From: Escherichia coli | GTDB taxonomy: Bacteria; Pseudomonadota; Gammaproteobacteria; Enterobacterales; Enterobacteriaceae | NCBI RefSeq assembly: GCF_013122565.1 | Contig: NZ_CP053258.1 | Length of the DNA stretch: 64,000 bases | Direction: 5' to 3' (one strand) | Part shown: positions 14,109 through 26,486 of the stretch, one piece after another | Layout: each line of letters opens with the position of its first letter | How positions within the stretch are numbered: the stretch's first letter is position 1 | Notes under the pieces: model-generated | Databases searched by the model: none | Seen by the model: the letters and a program-made list of their open reading frames with translations, nothing else | Told to the model about the DNA's origin: nothing | Program-made: the position numbers and the translations under genes

Positions 14109-15869
14109 CTATATGCTGCATATTTTTTTATAATGTTCAAAAACATCTTTAAAAGTGTTGAGTATTATTTCAAAACCACTAAAATCAACTTTTCGTTTTT
14201 TATCCCTAACTACTTTCACAGAGAAAACATGTTTCCCATATTCAGTTTTTGAGTCCCCATCGTTCTTTTTGTTAAATTTTTTACCACCAAGAATAGTTGA
14301 TAATACATCATGAGTAAAAAGATCTTCCATCGCAGTCTGCTCACCAGTAGCACTTAAAGGCGTTAGAATGATATAGAGATTTTTAAAGACATGGATAAAT
14401 CTCATTTTTCTCATTTTATTGGTATCATCGGGGCAGCTCTTAACATTATTTTTAAGGAAATTCAAAATCTCATTAGAACCAGAATCGTTGTCCAATACCA
14501 TGATAACCGGGTGCTTAGGAATGCTTCCATAGTAGCTTGAATATTCATCCATATATCTTTCGATGAATTTTTTAAGATCTGCGCTACCTCCAGACATATT
14601 AATAAAATAACTTGACTTCTCATCAGATTTAAAAATATTCAAGTTGATATCATTTCCTTTACCGTCTGTGCTTTTCTTGAGCAACTCAGGAAATTTGGCA
14701 GAAAGTGAACGAATAGCTGATTTTAAATATACTCGATCAGTTTTGCCTTCTGTCAAGATTGTCGGGGAAGCATGTCCATGAAAAAACTTGTAGTAAATAA
14801 ATTTACTATATGCCTTCTCTCGTACATTCAGCTTTAACCTGTAGTTTTTTAATGTAATATGAATAGGCGCATATTTTTCAGGCTGTTTACTTATTTTATC
14901 TTGTATGTTATTAAATTTATCAATCTGGTCAATAAACCCAAATCTTCCCTCTAGTTTTTCGATACTCCCCACGACTAGCTTACCATCTTCATCAGGTAGC
15001 TTATATTCTCCCTTACTATAAAGTGAATGAGCTAATGCTCTTGTTTTATTCGAATATTTCCTATCAACGTTAACAAATCTATTTATAGTAAGTCCCGTAA
15101 CTTCTTGTCTCGTGGATTTGTACGAGATCCTTGTTTTAGCATCATTAATATCAAAACCAGCACGTTTTATTTCACTGACAAGAATGCTCCCCAAGACAAC
15201 CCCCTCAGGAAGAGATATTGCCAAATCGGTAGGAAATTCTTTTTTATTAGTTGAAAACGTGATGTCATCGGCATAACGACTATATGAACAACCTAAACTC
15301 TTTGCTAATTTAGCTAATCTAATATCCATAATGCTACAAATTAAGTTTGTTATCACTGGAGAACACGGGCTACCCTGAGGCAAACTTCCCTTATAGCATG
15401 CGGCTTTAGCTAAAGTAGTGGCGACAATCGGATTTAATAAGAAATCCCTATTGGATAGGAAGTACCCTCTCACTCGCCCAAAATTAAAGCTTTTGAAAAA
15501 ATCCTTAAGATCAATATTGAGTATTATATTTTTCCCACGATGTCTGAAAGCATTGGAAATTATTGACTTATTTCTTTCAAAACCAAAGGAGTAATTGTTT
15601 TTAATTTTTTTAATTTTGAAAGTTTCATCTCTACACTCCATTAAAAGATCGGCTATTCGTCTTTGGAGATCTTTCAAACTATCTTCTGGCGCAGAAATCA
15701 ATCTGACTCCCTTACCTTTTTTTGGAATAGAGAAATCTTTATACTGATTATCAGTACCAATTCTGTAAAGAATATTCGTTAAAAACACCAACTTAACATC
15801 TAGCAATTTTGCCAAGTCAGCACGAGATGCTGCGACTTTCAAAAGTAGTAATTTAGAAGTTGCGACCAT
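14109..15869 (-). CDS. ret: Retron reverse transcriptase with C-terminal TOPRIM domain (RT-TOPRIM fusion; consistent with retron-Ec67 / Retron-Eco2 RT)
   Basis: 586 aa; RT motifs [23 protein letters not shown] (res 199-202); TOPRIM-like TEGKTD (373-378) and VLDNDSG (458-464); strongly AT-rich. Confidence 0.9.
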
Positions 15870-16469: not shown

Positions 16470-16895
16470 ATGAAAAGCTTTTACGTATTAATTTTAATTC
16501 TGGTTGCAAGCTTTGTTAGCGTCCCAGTTCAGGCGGTAACAGCTAAAAACTATGAGAAAGGAACTAAAGCTCAACAGAAATCAATATCTTACCTTTCATG
16601 TGCATTCTATGGCAGTAGCACACAATTAGATCCTAGCTACACGGAGCAAGTACCTACAGCCGATATCAAGATATTACAGAAAGCAGCTTACCACGCTTAC
16701 AACGATGCGCTCTCATACTTTGGCTATGAGGAACCAGATCACGAACAACGCATAATTGATTATGCTGAATTTGTGGCGTCGCAAGAAGCTGTGTTATGGG
16801 ATAAGCCGGGAATGAATGGAAAGCAGGTAACACTAATTGCTCGTTCTCTCTACAATGAGAGTAACTGTAACTTGTTACTGGACTCAATTAAGTAG
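16470..16895 (+). CDS. AT-rich cargo gene: small secreted protein of unknown function
   Basis: 141 aa; signal peptide MKSFYVLILILVASFVSVPVQA; GAGG RBS; low GC. Confidence 0.7.
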   Translation: MKSFYVLILILVASFVSVPVQAVTAKNYEKGTKAQQKSISYLSCAFYGSSTQLDPSYTEQVPTADIKILQKAAYHAYNDALSYFGYEEPDHEQRIIDYAEFVASQEAVLWDKPGMNGKQVTLIARSLYNESNCNLLLDSIK

Positions 16896-17054
16896 GAAAA
16901 AGATGGTATTTTGCCCGTAGTTTCAACCTTAATCTCCGAACCTGTCGCAGAACGGGCGTTCACTCATCAAATAAACGCCACACCTAACGCCTCACTGTAC
17001 TCGTTGTTCAACCTTGCTGACGCCAGAACCAAGTTCAGACGCCAGCAACTTTTC

Positions 17055-17288
17055 TTAATGCAGCCAGCTGTCGTCTTCCCACACCTTCTGCATAATCTTC
17101 ATCACTTGTTTTCTTTCTTCGTCCAGTTGCAGTCCGGTCAGTTCCACACCGTTAGAGCTACCTTTGCGGATGCGAATTACCGTTTTGGGATACAGGGGGC
17201 GCAGATTGCGGTAAAGCTCGGATTCAAGGGCGTCCAGGGTAGACTGGCTAATCTTCTGCTCTTTATCGATCATTATTTCAATGCGCAT
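17055..17288 (-). CDS. DinI-family protein (Tum antirepressor C-terminal-domain-like)
   Basis: Start trimmed to MRIEIMIDKEQ... (GAGGTG RBS); pattern MRIE...LDALESEL...WEDDSW resembles DinI. Confidence 0.7.
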   Translation of the reverse strand: MRIEIMIDKEQKISQSTLDALESELYRNLRPLYPKTVIRIRKGSSNGVELTGLQLDEERKQVMKIMQKVWEDDSWLH

Positions 17289-17298
17289 AAAGGTCACC

Positions 17299-17487
17299 TC
17301 AGCTGATGACATCCATTGAGCGGTTGTATTCGTGGGTTCTGATTTTTGCCATGAGTTCATCAGTCAATTCAGAAACCCACTGCAGAGCCAGCCCCTTCTC
17401 TTCATCACTACACTCACTAGCCGCTACAAGCTTAAGAAAAAAATCAATGCGCTGGAGCTTCAAAGACTCCAAAAAATAGTCCTGCAT
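17299..17487 (-). CDS. Small protein upstream of DinI-like ORF (possible N-terminal part of a Tum-like antirepressor)
   Basis: 62 aa; directly downstream of a LexA box; separated from the DinI ORF by a frame change. Confidence 0.5.
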   Translation of the reverse strand: MQDYFLESLKLQRIDFFLKLVAASECSDEEKGLALQWVSELTDELMAKIRTHEYNRSMDVIS

Positions 17488-22737: not shown

Positions 22738-22959
22738 CTAGTTGAATACAACATTGCAATCAGTAAGTGCATCAACGGTAAGAGCAGCAAGGTTGATCAT
22801 TACTTTTTCTCTTTTCTTGTCTTTACGAAGACGATGCCGAGGAATGCGACCATCCGCCAACATATCGTTGATTGTGTCGATTGAAAGACCAGTAAGTTCG
22901 CTATAACGCTCGATTGTGACGTGTGGCGTATTCAGAGTTATTGAAATGTTAGGGGTCAT
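22738..22959 (-). CDS. apl: Apl/Cox-like excisionase and lytic-switch regulator (HTH)
   Basis: Start trimmed to [33 protein letters not shown]...; divergent from cI-like gene. Confidence 0.6.
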
Positions 22960-23008
22960 GATGCAACATCTCCTATTGGCTTGTGGTGAGCCTGTAGTAA
23001 TCGCGACA

Positions 23009-23024
23009 AGTACCCAATTGGGTA
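23009..23024. promoter_or_regulatory. Perfect 16-bp palindrome in the apl/cI switch region (operator candidate)
   Basis: gtacccaattgggtac; a related half-site agtacccaag recurs at about 23079-23088. Confidence 0.4.
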
Positions 23025-23054
23025 CAAAACTGATACTAGGATCGCAAAAGAGAT

Positions 23055-23651
23055 ATGTCAACATCAAAGTACCCAAGTGAGATCAAAATAAATCCCAATA
23101 AAGGTGGTAAGGCTGCGATTGAGCGATTAGTCGAAGCCTATGGCTTTACGACACGACAGGCTTTAGCTGATCACTTGGAAGTATCAAAAAGCACACTAGC
23201 GAACAGGTATTTGCGGGATACATTTCCTGCTGACTGGATAATCCAATGTGCTCTTGAAACAGGAACCTCCCTCAAATGGTTAACTACCGGACAAGGCCTT
23301 AAGCAAAGCTCGCTGACAGCAGCTACAGAAGAGCTTGTTAAGTTTCGCCTTGCCGCAGGCAAAATGATTGAAGACGGTTCATATGTCTTCGATTCATCAT
23401 TTCTTCCTGCAAACCTTTCATCACCAATTGTTATTCAGGATGGACTCGTCACATACATTTGTGATCAAAAATTTTCTGAAGTACTTGATGGAAACTGGTT
23501 AATCAATATCGACGGAACCTATTCCATTCGAAAAATCACAAGGCTTCCTAAAGGAATGATTAAAATTACAACAGCAGAGAATAGCTTTGAATGTGCATTT
23601 TCTGATATTGAAGTGGTTGCTTGTATAAGAAGTACAATAGTCTCGAATTAA
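23055..23651 (+). CDS. cI: CI-like immunity repressor (186 CI type)
   Basis: 198 aa; position between switch region and int; N-terminal HTH-like segment. Confidence 0.7.
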   Translation: MSTSKYPSEIKINPNKGGKAAIERLVEAYGFTTRQALADHLEVSKSTLANRYLRDTFPADWIIQCALETGTSLKWLTTGQGLKQSSLTAATEELVKFRLAAGKMIEDGSYVFDSSFLPANLSSPIVIQDGLVTYICDQKFSEVLDGNWLINIDGTYSIRKITRLPKGMIKITTAENSFECAFSDIEVVACIRSTIVSN

Positions 23652-23671
23652 TATAGTAAAAGGATTTTAAA

Positions 23672-25348
23672 ATGAATTCATTTGCCATCGTTATACTCTT
23701 ATTAGCATTTCTCGCCCCTGTTCTAGCTGTAATATTATTTAAACAAAGTAAAAAACACAAAGCGGCTATAGATAACCTGACAGCTAACAACATAGCCCTT
23801 TCTAACCAACTGATTGAAAATCAAGAAAAACTAGCACAGACCGTACGAGAATTATCAGATCTTGAAGGGCGAGCAGCACCATTGTGGCAATACGAAGAAT
23901 TGCACAGCGCAGTAATGGATGCAGAGAATAAGATAAAAAATGCGGACTCAATAGCCAAGCAAAAAATAGATGAAGCCCAAATTAAGGCGGCTAAAACAGT
24001 AAACGAAGCAAATTATCAAGCTCAGATAACAATAAGCAACGCTAATAGCGAAGCTATAGCAATCACCAAAGACGCTCGCGATGCACGCCTGAAAGCCAAA
24101 GAACGTCTTGATAATGCTAATAATAAAGCAAATGAGCTAATCTCAAATGCTAATGACAATGCAGTAAAAATTATTTCTGATGCAGAAGAAAGAGCAAAGG
24201 AGATTGCTGGTTCAGCATATGAAGCTAAAGAGTTTGCAGAAAAATATGAAGCAGTTGCAAAATCAATGAAAAATAAAATTGAAGGTTATGGTGATGAATG
24301 GATCATCCCTAACCGTAGTGTACTTGATGAGCTGGCAGAAAATTATGAATTTACAGATGCAGGCAAGGAATTACAAAAAGCCAGAGAGTTAACCAAATCA
24401 TTAATAAAAACTAATAAAGCTGCTTCGTGTGATTATGTTGAGCAAAACAGGCGTAATACTGCCATAAACTTTGTTTTGGATGCCTTCAATGGAAGAGTTG
24501 ACAGTATTTTATCAAAAGTCAAACACAACAATTTTGGAAAACTTTCCCAAGAAATAAAAGATGCATTTCAACTAGTAAATTACAATGGCTCTGCCTTTAG
24601 GTCCGCAAAAATAAGTGACATCTATCTTCAGGCAAGACTCAACGAGCTAAAATGGGGTGTAGCAGTTAATGAAATTATGCTCGAAGAAAAAGAAGAGCAA
24701 AGAAGGATTAAAGAACAGCTTCGTGAAGAGGAAAGAGCTCGTAGAGAATATGAAAAAGCGATAAAAGAAGCTGAAAAAGAAGAAAAAGCTATTCAGCAAG
24801 CTATAAATAAAGCAACGAAAGAACTTATGCTTGCAAATGAAGAACAACGCTTAGCTTTAGAGCAAAAAATAGCTGAACTACAGTTAAAATATGAAGAAGC
24901 TGAAGCTAAAAATCAACGAGCTATTTCTATGGCTCAACAAACCAGATCAGGCCACGTCTATATCATTAGTAATATTGGTTCATTTGGCGAAGATGTATAT
25001 AAAATTGGAATGACACGCCGCCTTGAACCACTTGATCGTGTTCGTGAACTCGGAGATGCTAGTGTTCCTTTTTCGTTCGATGTTCATGCGATGATTTATA
25101 GTGATGATGCACCATCATTAGAAAACCATCTGCATAAAGTTTTCAACGAAAAGCAGGTCAATAAAATTAACTCACGAAAAGAGTTTTTTAACGTAAATTT
25201 AAAAGAAATCAAATCAGTTATTGAAGACATGAACATCAACGCCCACTGGACAATGTTTGCAGAGGCGAAAGAATATAGAGAGTCTCTAGCTATTGAGCAG
25301 GAGCGCAAAGCAGCCACTTCCGCCAACGATGAACTACATGTTGCTTAG
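23672..25348 (+). CDS. AT-rich cargo gene: membrane-anchored coiled-coil protein with C-terminal T5orf172 (GIY-YIG-like) domain; DUF4041-type architecture; defense candidate
   Basis: 558 aa; N-terminal TM helix, long K/E/A-rich coiled coils, C-terminal GHVYIISNIGSFGEDVYKIGMTRRLEPLDRVRELGDASVPFSFDV; co-directional with cI and int. Confidence 0.85.
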   Translation: MNSFAIVILLLAFLAPVLAVILFKQSKKHKAAIDNLTANNIALSNQLIENQEKLAQTVRELSDLEGRAAPLWQYEELHSAVMDAENKIKNADSIAKQKIDEAQIKAAKTVNEANYQAQITISNANSEAIAITKDARDARLKAKERLDNANNKANELISNANDNAVKIISDAEERAKEIAGSAYEAKEFAEKYEAVAKSMKNKIEGYGDEWIIPNRSVLDELAENYEFTDAGKELQKARELTKSLIKTNKAASCDYVEQNRRNTAINFVLDAFNGRVDSILSKVKHNNFGKLSQEIKDAFQLVNYNGSAFRSAKISDIYLQARLNELKWGVAVNEIMLEEKEEQRRIKEQLREEERARREYEKAIKEAEKEEKAIQQAINKATKELMLANEEQRLALEQKIAELQLKYEEAEAKNQRAISMAQQTRSGHVYIISNIGSFGEDVYKIGMTRRLEPLDRVRELGDASVPFSFDVHAMIYSDDAPSLENHLHKVFNEKQVNKINSRKEFFNVNLKEIKSVIEDMNINAHWTMFAEAKEYRESLAIEQERKAATSANDELHVA

Positions 25349-25406: not shown

Positions 25407-25430
25407 AGCCCTCTGATATGAGGGCTTTTT
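25407..25430 (+). terminator. Rho-independent terminator after the cargo gene, abutting the int start codon
   Basis: agccctc-tgatatg-gagggct followed by TTTTT; a second hairpin agtaatca/tgattact at 25364-25384. Confidence 0.6.
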
Positions 25431-26486
25431 ATGGCAGTACGAAAACTAACCACAGGGAAATGGCTTTGCGAATGTTACCCCGCCGGACGTAGCGGACGCC
25501 GTGTGCGTAAACAATTCGCCACCAAAGGCGAAGCACTGGCCTTCGAGCGATACACCATGGGGGAAATAGAAGCAAAGCCCTGGCTGGGCGAATCAGTGGA
25601 TCGTCGGACACTGAAAGATATGGTTGAGCTATGGTTCAAATTACATGGCAAATCTCTTACTGCCGGACAGCATGTCTACAACAAGCTGCTGTTGATGGTT
25701 GACGCCTTGGGAAATCCCCTTGCAACTGATCTCACCTCAAAAATGTTTGCTCACTATCGCGATAAACGCCTTACTGGTGAAATCTACTTCAGTGAAAAAT
25801 GGAAGAAAGGAGCAAGCCCAGTTACTGTTAACCTGGAGCAAAGCCATCTAAGCAGCGTTTTCAGAGAACTTTCCCGCCTGGGTGAATGGACACTTCCAAA
25901 CCCATTAGAGAAGATGCGCAAATTCACTATCGCAGAAAAGGAAATGGCATGGCTTACACATGAGCAGATTATCGAATTACTGTCTGACTGCAAACGTCAG
26001 AACCCAATTCTGGCACTGGTGGTAAAAATATGTCTAAGTACAGGCGCACGTTGGCGAGAAGCAATCAATCTTACCCGCTCACAGGTCACCAAGTACCGAA
26101 TCACCTTTGTGAGAACGAAGGGGAAGAAAAACAGAAGCATCCCTATCAGTAAAGAGCTTTATGAAGAGATCATGGCGCTCGATGGGTTCAATTTCTTCAC
26201 AGACTGCTATTTTCAATTTTTATCCGTGATGGAAAAAACGTCTATCGTTCTCCCTCGCGGTCAACTGACACACGTTCTGCGCCATACGTTTGCGGCGCAC
26301 TTCATGATGTCGGGTGGAAACATCTTGGCCTTACAAAAAATTCTCGGACACCACGATATAAAAATGACTATGCGTTATGCGCATCTGGCACCGGATCATT
26401 TGGAAACGGCGCTCCGTTTCAATCCACTGGCAACGTTACCAAATGGCGACAAAGTGGCGGCAGCGGTTGGCATTACCCCGCAATAA
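25431..26486 (+). CDS. int: Tyrosine site-specific integrase (P2/186-like)
   Basis: 351 aa; C-terminal catalytic region ...LRHTFAAHFMMSGGNILALQKILGHHDIKMTMRYAHL (R, H-x-x-R, Y). Confidence 0.9.
   Translation: MAVRKLTTGKWLCECYPAGRSGRRVRKQFATKGEALAFERYTMGEIEAKPWLGESVDRRTLKDMVELWFKLHGKSLTAGQHVYNKLLLMVDALGNPLATDLTSKMFAHYRDKRLTGEIYFSEKWKKGASPVTVNLEQSHLSSVFRELSRLGEWTLPNPLEKMRKFTIAEKEMAWLTHEQIIELLSDCKRQNPILALVVKICLSTGARWREAINLTRSQVTKYRITFVRTKGKKNRSIPISKELYEEIMALDGFNFFTDCYFQFLSVMEKTSIVLPRGQLTHVLRHTFAAHFMMSGGNILALQKILGHHDIKMTMRYAHLAPDHLETALRFNPLATLPNGDKVAAAVGITPQ

Follow-up and report, generated by a model that had tools for sequence, protein, structure and literature searches.

A predicted SNIPE-family (PD-lambda-1) nuclease gene carried as cargo between cI and int of a 186-like prophage of Escherichia coli

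The window analysed here, a stretch of 64,000 nucleotides of Escherichia coli DNA (contig NZ_CP053258.1), contains a 186-like (Peduoviridae) prophage adjoining rcdA, in which an open reading frame of 558 aa with an ATG start lies between a 186-type cI repressor gene and a tyrosine integrase gene (Table 1). The three genes occupy one strand in the order cI, 558-aa gene, int, with 20 nt between the first two and 82 nt between the last two. GC content is 36.9% in the 558-aa gene, lower than in cI (40.0%), in int (47.5%) or in the window as a whole (49.9%). At this base composition stop codons are expected at about 6.8% of random codons, and arithmetic from that rate puts the chance of a 558-codon open stretch at about 1e-17; the protein (WP_163435690) has thousands of homologues, and its RefSeq name is ‘SNIPE associated domain-containing protein’. 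A first-pass annotation, made from the sequence alone, had described an AT-rich gene with exactly these coordinates, placed between repressor and integrase genes and co-oriented with both, and the composition, the PHROG 4 and PHROG 1 matches of the neighbours and the RefSeq name of the repressor gene all agree with that description.

Table 1. Features of the cI–int interval and of the 558-aa protein, in window coordinates.
Feature	Coordinates	Strand	Basis
Candidate lysogenic promoter pL, weak, TTGAAA-17-CAACAT	22941..22969	+	Relaxed scan, 8/12 matches
Strong sigma-70-like promoter, leftward, TTGACA-17-TAGTAT	23033..23061	-	Consensus scan, 10/12 matches
cI-type repressor gene, 198 aa	23055..23651	+	PHROG 4 ‘transcriptional repressor’ 5e-29; RefSeq ‘phage repressor protein CI’
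cI stop codon, TAA	23649-23651	+	
Shine-Dalgarno AAGGA, 7 nt 5′ of ATG	23660..23664	+	Direct sequence reading
558-aa ORF, stop codon included	23672..25348	+	ORF listing
Single TM helix, predicted, aa 4-23 (FAIVILLLAFLAPVLAVILF)	23681..23740	+	Kyte-Doolittle
Long helical stalk, aa 24-204, Ala/Asn/Lys/Glu-rich, variable ‘adapter’ region	23741..24283	+	AlphaFold2
Globular helical domain, aa 205-330, with DUF4041/‘SNIPE’	24284..24661	+	Pfam, AlphaFold2
DUF4041 (PF13250), aa 267-322	24470-24637	+	Pfam, E 3.1e-12, model positions 2-56/56
Lys/Glu-rich helical hairpin linker, aa 331-422	24662..24937	+	AlphaFold2
GIY-YIG-type nuclease domain (T5orf172/MUG113), aa 427-520	24950..25231	+	Pfam
Codon of catalytic Glu E484, GAA	25121-25123	+	
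GC-rich hairpin then TTTTT, directly 5′ of int ATG	25407..25426	+	Terminator-like site in scan
Tyrosine integrase gene, 351 aa	25431..26486	+	PHROG 1 integrase 3e-75; NCBIfam tyrosine recombinase matches

The predicted protein is built as a membrane helix followed by a long stalk, a globular domain, a helical linker and a C-terminal nuclease domain. A Kyte-Doolittle profile with a 19-residue window peaks at 3.16 over the N-terminal helix, the sole hydrophobic segment, which bears out the membrane anchor proposed at first reading. The full-length AlphaFold2 model (pLDDT 83.6) is an elongated TM–stalk–globular–hairpin–nuclease layout, the same as that of SNIPE: aa 2-204 are modelled as one unbroken helix, the globular domain has pLDDT values mostly of 86-96, the linker helices run from aa 316-387 and 390-422, and the nuclease domain takes a GIY-YIG fold, as the first-pass annotation had anticipated that structure prediction might reveal. 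The two Lys/Glu-rich coiled coils of that annotation stand as two long helical stretches (aa 2-204 and 316-422), but the first of them is rich in Ala and Asn as well as Lys and Glu. Pfam assigns T5orf172 to aa 427-520 (8e-17) and MUG113 to aa 443-520 (2e-19), in agreement with the nuclease segment noticed at first reading and, with the DUF4041 match, with a DUF4041–T5orf172 build; the Pfam labels precomputed for homologues read PF13250:SNIPE. A profile search of PDB sequences gave marginal matches only, pairing the N-terminal helix and stalk with ATP synthase subunit b at E about 2e-3; we read these as a likeness of composition or architecture, not as homology.

SNIPE is the present name of PD-lambda-1, which was discovered in 2022 through functional selection (Vassallo et al. 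2022, PMC9519451), in a study that lists 1,141 homologues, and whose mechanism has since been worked out (bioRxiv 10.1101/2025.11.03.685801; Saxton et al., Nature 2026, PMC13190303). The PADLOC PD-Lambda-1 HMMs match the 558-aa protein at E 3e-120 and 1.4e-116, over aa 106-551 and profile positions 33-481 of about 491-496, with the stronger match spanning aa 116-550; the second-best PADLOC model, PDC-S57 (4.5e-20), covers the nuclease only (aa 424-546). As a reference we used the 500-aa ‘PD-lambda-1’ CDS of phage PhiR26_1 (L001:4071-5573), in which nine of the nine residues mutated in the SNIPE paper were found at their stated positions. Against the PD-Lambda-1 profile this reference scores 658 bits (2e-198) and the 558-aa protein 400 bits, and BLASTP aligns the latter to ECOR26 SNIPE with 50% identity over 293 aa (aa 265-555 here; E 7e-77). 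Identity is highest in the nuclease (65%) and falls towards the N-terminus, to 48% in the linker, 20% in the globular domain and 11% in the stalk, where 91 of 179 residues are alignable; in the profile alignment the TM helix and stalk are 10-11% identical. The catalytic Glu of SNIPE, E414, corresponds to E484 and is invariant in 50 of 50 homologues, as are G427, Y430, G446, T448 and N497. With a whole-length PD-Lambda-1 profile match, DUF4041, a GIY-YIG domain retaining its catalytic Glu and a predicted TM anchor, the gene is, on sequence grounds, a SNIPE-family (PD-lambda-1) nuclease gene, an already recognised kind of defence gene, and an anti-phage function for its product is supported by homology. 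The earlier suggestion of a candidate single-gene anti-phage effector is thus upheld, as to family by the search of defence HMMs that it had recommended (the E 3e-120 match) and as to function by homology, while its remark that no characterized mechanism is known is out of date: the SNIPE mechanism has been published and the RefSeq label follows it.

The Shine-Dalgarno sequence of the SNIPE-family gene lies within the short gap that follows the cI stop codon, and terminator prediction gave none in the interval between the two genes. Because of this spacing, the gene's own ribosome-binding site and the lack of a predicted terminator after cI, the operon layout is consistent with expression in the lysogen, cI being presumed to be the first gene of a lysogenic operon that includes the SNIPE-family gene. 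At the standard scan threshold no plus-strand promoter was found upstream of cI or of the SNIPE-family gene, and the relaxed scan gave only the weak pL candidate, so that we rejected a promoter brought in by the cargo itself. The candidate pL points towards the strong leftward promoter, and that promoter towards it; the latter we take, by analogy with coliphage 186, to be the equivalent of pR for the apl/cII lytic operon. Sibling prophages that carry other cargo keep the terminator-like hairpin before int, and homology of the backbone restarts right after the ORF stop codon, the flank upstream of int being conserved; the hairpin is therefore phage backbone and not part of the cargo, and we rejected a terminator imported with it.

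The cI–int interval is a variable-cargo slot of P2/186-like prophages, often occupied by defence genes. In related prophages it holds a 63-aa ORF (BL21, A29 and strain 98233), the Old nuclease (strain VE-V10-F; PADLOC E 9e-235) or a SNIPE homologue, while the int–att slot holds PDC-S21/DUF4917 or a 110-aa ORF. The association with defence genes that the first-pass annotation had proposed looking for is thus seen within the slot itself, for example as Old in VE-V10-F. Prophages of Klebsiella and Salmonella, as well as the phages vB_EcoM-813R9 and KP12, have the cI–gene–int order too. Among 5426 complete E. coli genomes, 164 (about 3%) carry the SNIPE-family gene and 162 carry the same cI allele, and a search for E. 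coli prophages with this cI but an empty site found allele and gene nearly always together. Like Old of phage P2, the gene would by itself provide a nuclease-based defence and belong to the exchangeable cargo of P2/186-like prophages (Rousset et al. 2022, PMC9122126; bioRxiv 10.64898/2026.02.27.708500), although the proteins are unrelated, Old being a cytoplasmic ATPase–Toprim enzyme. It shares its nuclease domain with PDC-S57 and stand-alone T5orf172/GIY-YIG proteins, which lack the TM helix, stalk and DUF4041. With Zorya, Kiwa and HK97 gp15 superinfection exclusion it would share the inner membrane and the genome-entry step as its place of action (as discussed in PMC13190303), but a sequence relationship to these was not detected, and they are multi-gene or non-nuclease systems.

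What is known of SNIPE itself comes from the ECOR26 protein (PMC13190303), a constitutive inner-membrane nuclease that cuts siphovirus DNA during injection. Its TM helix, which by Kyte-Doolittle lies at aa 5-24 and is equivalent to aa 4-23 here, has been shown experimentally to be the inner-membrane anchor, and about two thirds of SNIPE homologues have such a helix among their first 70 residues. Without that helix SNIPE is highly toxic and cuts the host chromosome, and its defence is lost on the E414A substitution and on deletion of DUF4041, a domain that binds DNA and the tape measure protein. The partners of SNIPE are ManYZ and the tape measure protein, and its N-terminal region has been proposed as an adapter for partner and phage specificity. 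Its range comprises siphoviruses only, an induced resident prophage is unaffected, and cells survive, which marks it as a direct defence, unlike PD-lambda-3 when the two were compared in parallel (all PMC13190303). The gene described here resembles that of ECOR26 in being a single, prophage-borne gene that encodes, in the same order, a TM helix, helical stalk, DUF4041, helical linker and C-terminal GIY-YIG/T5orf172 domain. The carriers differ: a 186-like myovirus prophage with the gene in its cI–int slot here, a lambdoid prophage with the gene between ren and rha for SNIPE.

The domain architecture, family membership, catalytic conservation, model fold, operon layout and variable slot described above are results of this analysis, and together with the published SNIPE work they suggest how the protein might act. 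We consider it probable that it is a SNIPE-family direct-defence nuclease which cuts injected phage DNA, and that its gene is prophage cargo within the lysogenic operon of this 186-like element. The steps that follow, from membrane topology and constitutive expression to injection-stage cleavage, tape measure recognition and direct defence, are drawn by analogy with SNIPE. [quoted passage not shown] On infection by a foreign tailed phage, most likely a siphovirus, the DUF4041 region would meet the tape measure conduit and the DNA passing through it into the cell, and the GIY-YIG domain, with E484 as its putative catalytic Glu, would cut that DNA before replication, the cell surviving. The resident myovirus prophage would be spared because DNA already in the cell would not be a target.

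Other readings of a prophage-borne nuclease gene can be weighed against this one. One is that infection frees or activates such a protein, which then degrades host and phage DNA together until the cell dies; in its favour, many prophage-borne nuclease systems work by abortive infection, and SNIPE stripped of its TM helix is itself a toxic enzyme that attacks the chromosome (PMC13190303). We nonetheless hold this to be improbable, as the characterized homologue defends directly with survival of the cell, unlike PD-lambda-3 (PMC13190303), and as the 558-aa protein keeps the SNIPE architecture and catalytic residues. More doubtful still, and in our judgement very improbable, is a selfish homing-type endonuclease gene that persists by cutting alleles lacking it and not by defending its host. 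The gene does lie exactly at a module junction, with backbone homology restarting immediately after its stop codon, and it keeps close company with a single cI allele, which is present in 162 genomes where the gene is present in 164; moreover, one study describes T5orf172 genes as marking recombination boundaries in phages (PMC10448857). However, a homing endonuclease would be a small free-standing nuclease with a DNA-binding domain and no anchor, encoded beside its cognate target site, and the membrane helix, 200-residue stalk and DUF4041 found here are foreign to such enzymes; the family that the protein matches along its whole length is one for which defence has been demonstrated, and unrelated defence genes fill the same slot in sibling prophages. 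A structural or chromosome-segregation role, to which we give almost no credence, is implied by the label ‘chromosome segregation ATPase’ in phage records ON470620 and OM835953 and by weak NCBIfam matches to SMC, DivIVA/Wag31 and V-ATPase subunit E. These matches fall on coiled-coil stretches only and, at 15-23 bits, stay far below the curated cut-offs, which lie at 260-729 bits (the SMC model TIGR02169 gives 15.5 bits against a 729-bit cut-off), and we rejected them as annotations; Pfam finds no ATPase domain in the protein.

A more serious question is whether a protein of the same family is wired differently, its long, divergent stalk guiding the nuclease to an inner-membrane injection route that does not involve ManYZ, or to phages or satellites of a different class. 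The 558-aa protein differs from the 500-aa SNIPE in that BLASTP gives no alignment for its N-terminal 264 aa, its stalk is about 70 aa longer, and the region proposed for ManYZ contact is not conserved; its first 120 or so residues are also the most variable among its close relatives (identity 0.58-0.66, against 0.90-0.98 elsewhere). Three positions at which substitutions in SNIPE strengthened defence against Bas14 likewise differ (SNIPE E223 corresponds to S292 here, N250 to Q320 and W257 to K327). W257R strengthens SNIPE defence against Bas14-18 (PMC13190303), and 38 of 50 homologues have K or R at the position matching W257. As the divergent N-terminal region is the proposed specificity determinant in the SNIPE model (PMC13190303), neither ManYZ association nor activity against lambda should be assumed here, and phage range and membrane partner may differ from those of SNIPE, given an N-terminal half that is unalignable by BLASTP, longer and highly variable. 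Against this, any candidate partner is purely hypothetical, and wild-type SNIPE already has weak ManYZ-independent defence against most siphoviruses (PMC13190303). We regard such different wiring as close to evenly balanced but slightly the less probable outcome; it would refine, and not contradict, the reading as a SNIPE-family direct-defence nuclease. A stronger version, which we think unlikely, holds that the 558-aa form common in Enterobacteriaceae 186-like prophages is a functionally distinct SNIPE subtype with another injection conduit and another spectrum, in which a rigid stalk of about 180 residues and an N-terminal stretch of 120 residues that evolves fast could bring the nuclease to a conduit different from ManYZ. 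If this were true, the subtype would have a defence spectrum unseen for the ECOR26 protein, possibly covering competitors of P2/186-like prophages, whether phages or satellites. In the same vein, the almost invariable pairing of the gene with a single cI allele in several genera hints at an ‘immunity plus exclusion’ module, with repressor and nuclease moving together.

As a further SNIPE relative, of known family and mechanism and with an existing RefSeq label, the protein adds little that is new. It does place a SNIPE-family, presumably entry-stage, nuclease in the likely lysogenic operon of a widespread 186-like lineage found in E. coli, Klebsiella, Salmonella and Citrobacter. One would expect such lysogens to withstand some siphoviruses, a point of relevance to the choice of therapy phages, and the divergent N-terminal half is a naturally occurring variant with which to probe the published idea that this region sets phage specificity.

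The gene between the repressor and integrase genes of this prophage runs for 558 codons without a stop, and by our own arithmetic the chance probability of an equally long stop-free run at such AT-richness is ~1e-17. Its product matches the PD-Lambda-1 model of the PADLOC library along its whole length (E 3e-120). PD-lambda-1 (RCP76574.1, 1503 nt) was recovered from E. coli ECOR26 by functional selection (Vassallo et al. 2022, PMC9519451) and renamed SNIPE by Saxton et al. (bioRxiv 10.1101/2025.11.03.685801; Nature 2026;653:861, PMC13190303). The reference SNIPE was retrieved from phage PhiR26_1 (PV340555), a 500-aa CDS annotated 'PD-lambda-1' in which each of the nine residues substituted in the mechanistic study is found at its exact position (E223, N250, L253, W257, E264, K305, I308, T319, E414). 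Against this reference, BLASTP aligned our protein at 50% identity across aa 265-555 (E 7e-77) and found no alignable stretch N-terminal to residue 265, while in the profile alignment identity fell from 65% for the nuclease to 48% for the linker, 20% for the globular domain and 10-11% for the TM helix and stalk; our protein's stalk is ~70 residues longer than that of the reference. E484 is the counterpart of SNIPE E414, and W257 is replaced by K327. Of 50 homologues, 38 have K or R at the latter position, which agrees with the observation of Saxton et al. that gain-of-function states occur widely in nature.

Protein anatomy (see table) was read from a sole hydrophobic segment (Kyte-Doolittle peak 3.16) at the N-terminus, Pfam matches, and an AlphaFold2 model (mean pLDDT 83.6) built on an alignment of 50 diverse homologues. 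G427, Y430, S433, G436, G439, G446, T448, E459, F469, E484, N497 and F506 are invariant in this alignment and R449 and R450 almost so; these conserved columns form the GIY...YIG...R...E...N pattern of the nuclease. Two phage records label such proteins 'chromosome segregation ATPase', a name that reflects coiled-coil composition only and was rejected.

Coordinates of the gene, its predicted domains, its neighbours and related cargo
Feature	Position	Strand	Evidence or remark
Retron RT fused to Toprim, type I-C (585 aa)	14109..15869	-	PADLOC RT-Toprim_I-C, E 1e-212
141-aa ORF	16470..16895	+	no PADLOC match
131-aa ORF	16911..17306	+	no PADLOC match
Candidate pL (TTGAAA-17-CAACAT)	22941-22969	+ (rightward)	promoter scan; weak; only rightward candidate
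Perfect 16-bp palindrome GTACCCAATTGGGTAC	23010..23025	+	between the two promoters
186 pR-like promoter	23061-23033	- (leftward)	promoter scan; strong
CI-type repressor gene (198-aa allele)	23055..23651	+	upstream neighbour
SNIPE-family gene (558 aa)	23672..25348	+	ORF listing
Hydrophobic segment	aa 4-23
Single unbroken helix	TM segment to aa 204		AlphaFold2
Compact helical domain including DUF4041	aa 205-330		AlphaFold2
DUF4041	aa 267-322		Pfam, 3e-12
Lys/Glu-rich helical hairpin	aa 316-422		AlphaFold2
Alpha/beta domain	aa 427-520		AlphaFold2
T5orf172	aa 427-520		Pfam, 8e-17
MUG113	aa 443-520		Pfam, 2e-19
E484 codon (GAA)	25121-25123
Hairpin AGCCCTC-TGATAT-GAGGGCT, then TTTTT	25407..25426	+	just 5' of the int ATG (25431)
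Tyrosine integrase gene (int)	25431..26486	+	downstream neighbour
ECOR26 SNIPE	L001:4071-5573		lambdoid prophage
Old-family nuclease, VE-V10-F	L003:2737-4506		PADLOC Old, E 9e-235; cI-int slot
PDC-S21/DUF4917 candidate defence gene, strain 98233	L004:5688-6671		int-att slot

The first-pass annotation had described an AT-rich gene flanked by repressor and integrase genes, and both points hold: GC is 36.9% against 49.9% for the window (upstream cI 40.0%, int 47.5%), and the neighbours encode a CI-type repressor and a tyrosine integrase on the same strand. Past cI the opposite strand carries apl/cox-like, cII, fil, B, dam and gpA genes, which identifies the carrier as a 186-like (Peduoviridae) prophage, inserted beside rcdA-ybjJ-ybjI-mdfA. 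Only 20 nt, too few to hold a promoter, separate the cI stop from the ATG, which is preceded at 7 nt by a Shine-Dalgarno AAGGA, and no terminator is predicted between cI and the gene. At this position the gene should be expressed jointly with the repressor in every lysogen. In coliphage 186, pR and pL lie face to face, and here the candidate pL likewise faces the pR-like promoter; the palindrome between them could serve as an operator for the repressor or for Apl. The hairpin before int looks like an intrinsic terminator, holds int's SD-like GAGGG in its 3' arm, and might dampen int expression from the lysogenic transcript, or gate it.

In 186-like prophages at the rcdA site, int is flanked by two small cargo slots. 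In sibling prophages the cI-int slot holds a 63-aa ORF (BL21(DE3), A29, strain 98233) or an Old-family nuclease (VE-V10-F), and the int-att slot a PDC-S21/DUF4917 candidate defence gene or a 110-aa ORF. Homology to the backbone restarts right after our gene's stop codon and the hairpin, its stem differing somewhat in sequence, is kept regardless of cargo, so that the cassette is essentially the ORF with its own ribosome-binding site. Elsewhere in this prophage, the portal-gpA hotspot, also AT-rich (GC 0.35-0.37), carries a retron RT-Toprim gene, with two further ORFs between it and gpA; the prophage therefore has at least two defence cargos.

The gene is present in 164 of 5426 complete E. coli genomes at >=94% nucleotide identity and the same 198-aa cI allele in 162; the two genes thus nearly always accompany each other, in near-perfect linkage. 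The cI-gene-int order recurs in phage vB_EcoM-813R9, Klebsiella phage KP12, and Klebsiella and Salmonella prophages at the orthologous TetR-MFS-HAD locus; in the latter prophages the pair persists while the adjacent portal-gpA hotspot varies (RT, TIR/SEFIR, DNA methylase). Proteins 82-85% identical are annotated in Citrobacter, Salmonella, Klebsiella, Enterobacter and others, and the wider family comprises 3370 cluster representatives (50% identity) at E <= 1e-3, or 1405 at E <= 1e-30. ECOR26 SNIPE occupies a different slot: its prophage is lambdoid, and the gene lies there with ren on one side and a rha-like gene on the other, running opposite to the replication genes. Siphovirus and myovirus prophages alike thus bear members of the family.

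SNIPE defence is direct, and cells outlive infection; lambda DNA is cut while being injected and an induced resident lambda prophage is spared (PMC13190303). Defence is lost with E414A or deletion of DUF4041, which promotes DNA binding, and SNIPE without its TM helix is toxic because the chromosome is then bound and cut (PMC13190303). Most siphoviruses are restricted, with no protection against BASEL myoviruses or podoviruses; DUF4041 substitutions (E223K, W257R, others) raise defence against Bas14-18, and escape mutations fall in the tape measure protein (PMC13190303). [quoted passage not shown]

Because architecture, catalytic residues and fold are all conserved, our protein is most likely a membrane-tethered nuclease by which foreign phage DNA would be cut on entry, as by SNIPE. 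Such a role would fit well with a carrier that is a myovirus prophage, a class outside the characterised SNIPE's targets, with resident DNA that would not be attacked, and with a gene apparently sited for expression with the repressor in lysogens. Abortive infection is a possible mode of action, but the behaviour of the homologue SNIPE runs counter to it, and a homing-endonuclease role for this GIY-YIG-type protein is unlikely because membrane anchor, stalk and DUF4041 are all present. The serious alternative is that the protein shares SNIPE's function with a different specificity: the region presumed to act as its adapter shows no sequence relationship to that of SNIPE, and among 117 close 558-aa relatives the first ~120 aa change fastest (identity to our protein 0.58-0.66 vs 0.90-0.98 across most of the rest). 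The phage specificity of the reference cannot be transferred to it.

The earlier proposal of an anti-phage nuclease thus appears to have been right, given the PD-Lambda-1 match and the SNIPE architecture, catalytic residues and fold. Judged from its sequence, the gene is a real, N-terminally divergent member of an already known family; its role in defence dates from work of 2022, and its mechanism followed in publications of 2025-26. Public annotation already records the membership: RefSeq names the protein 'DUF4041 domain-containing protein', with newer records using 'SNIPE associated domain-containing protein'.
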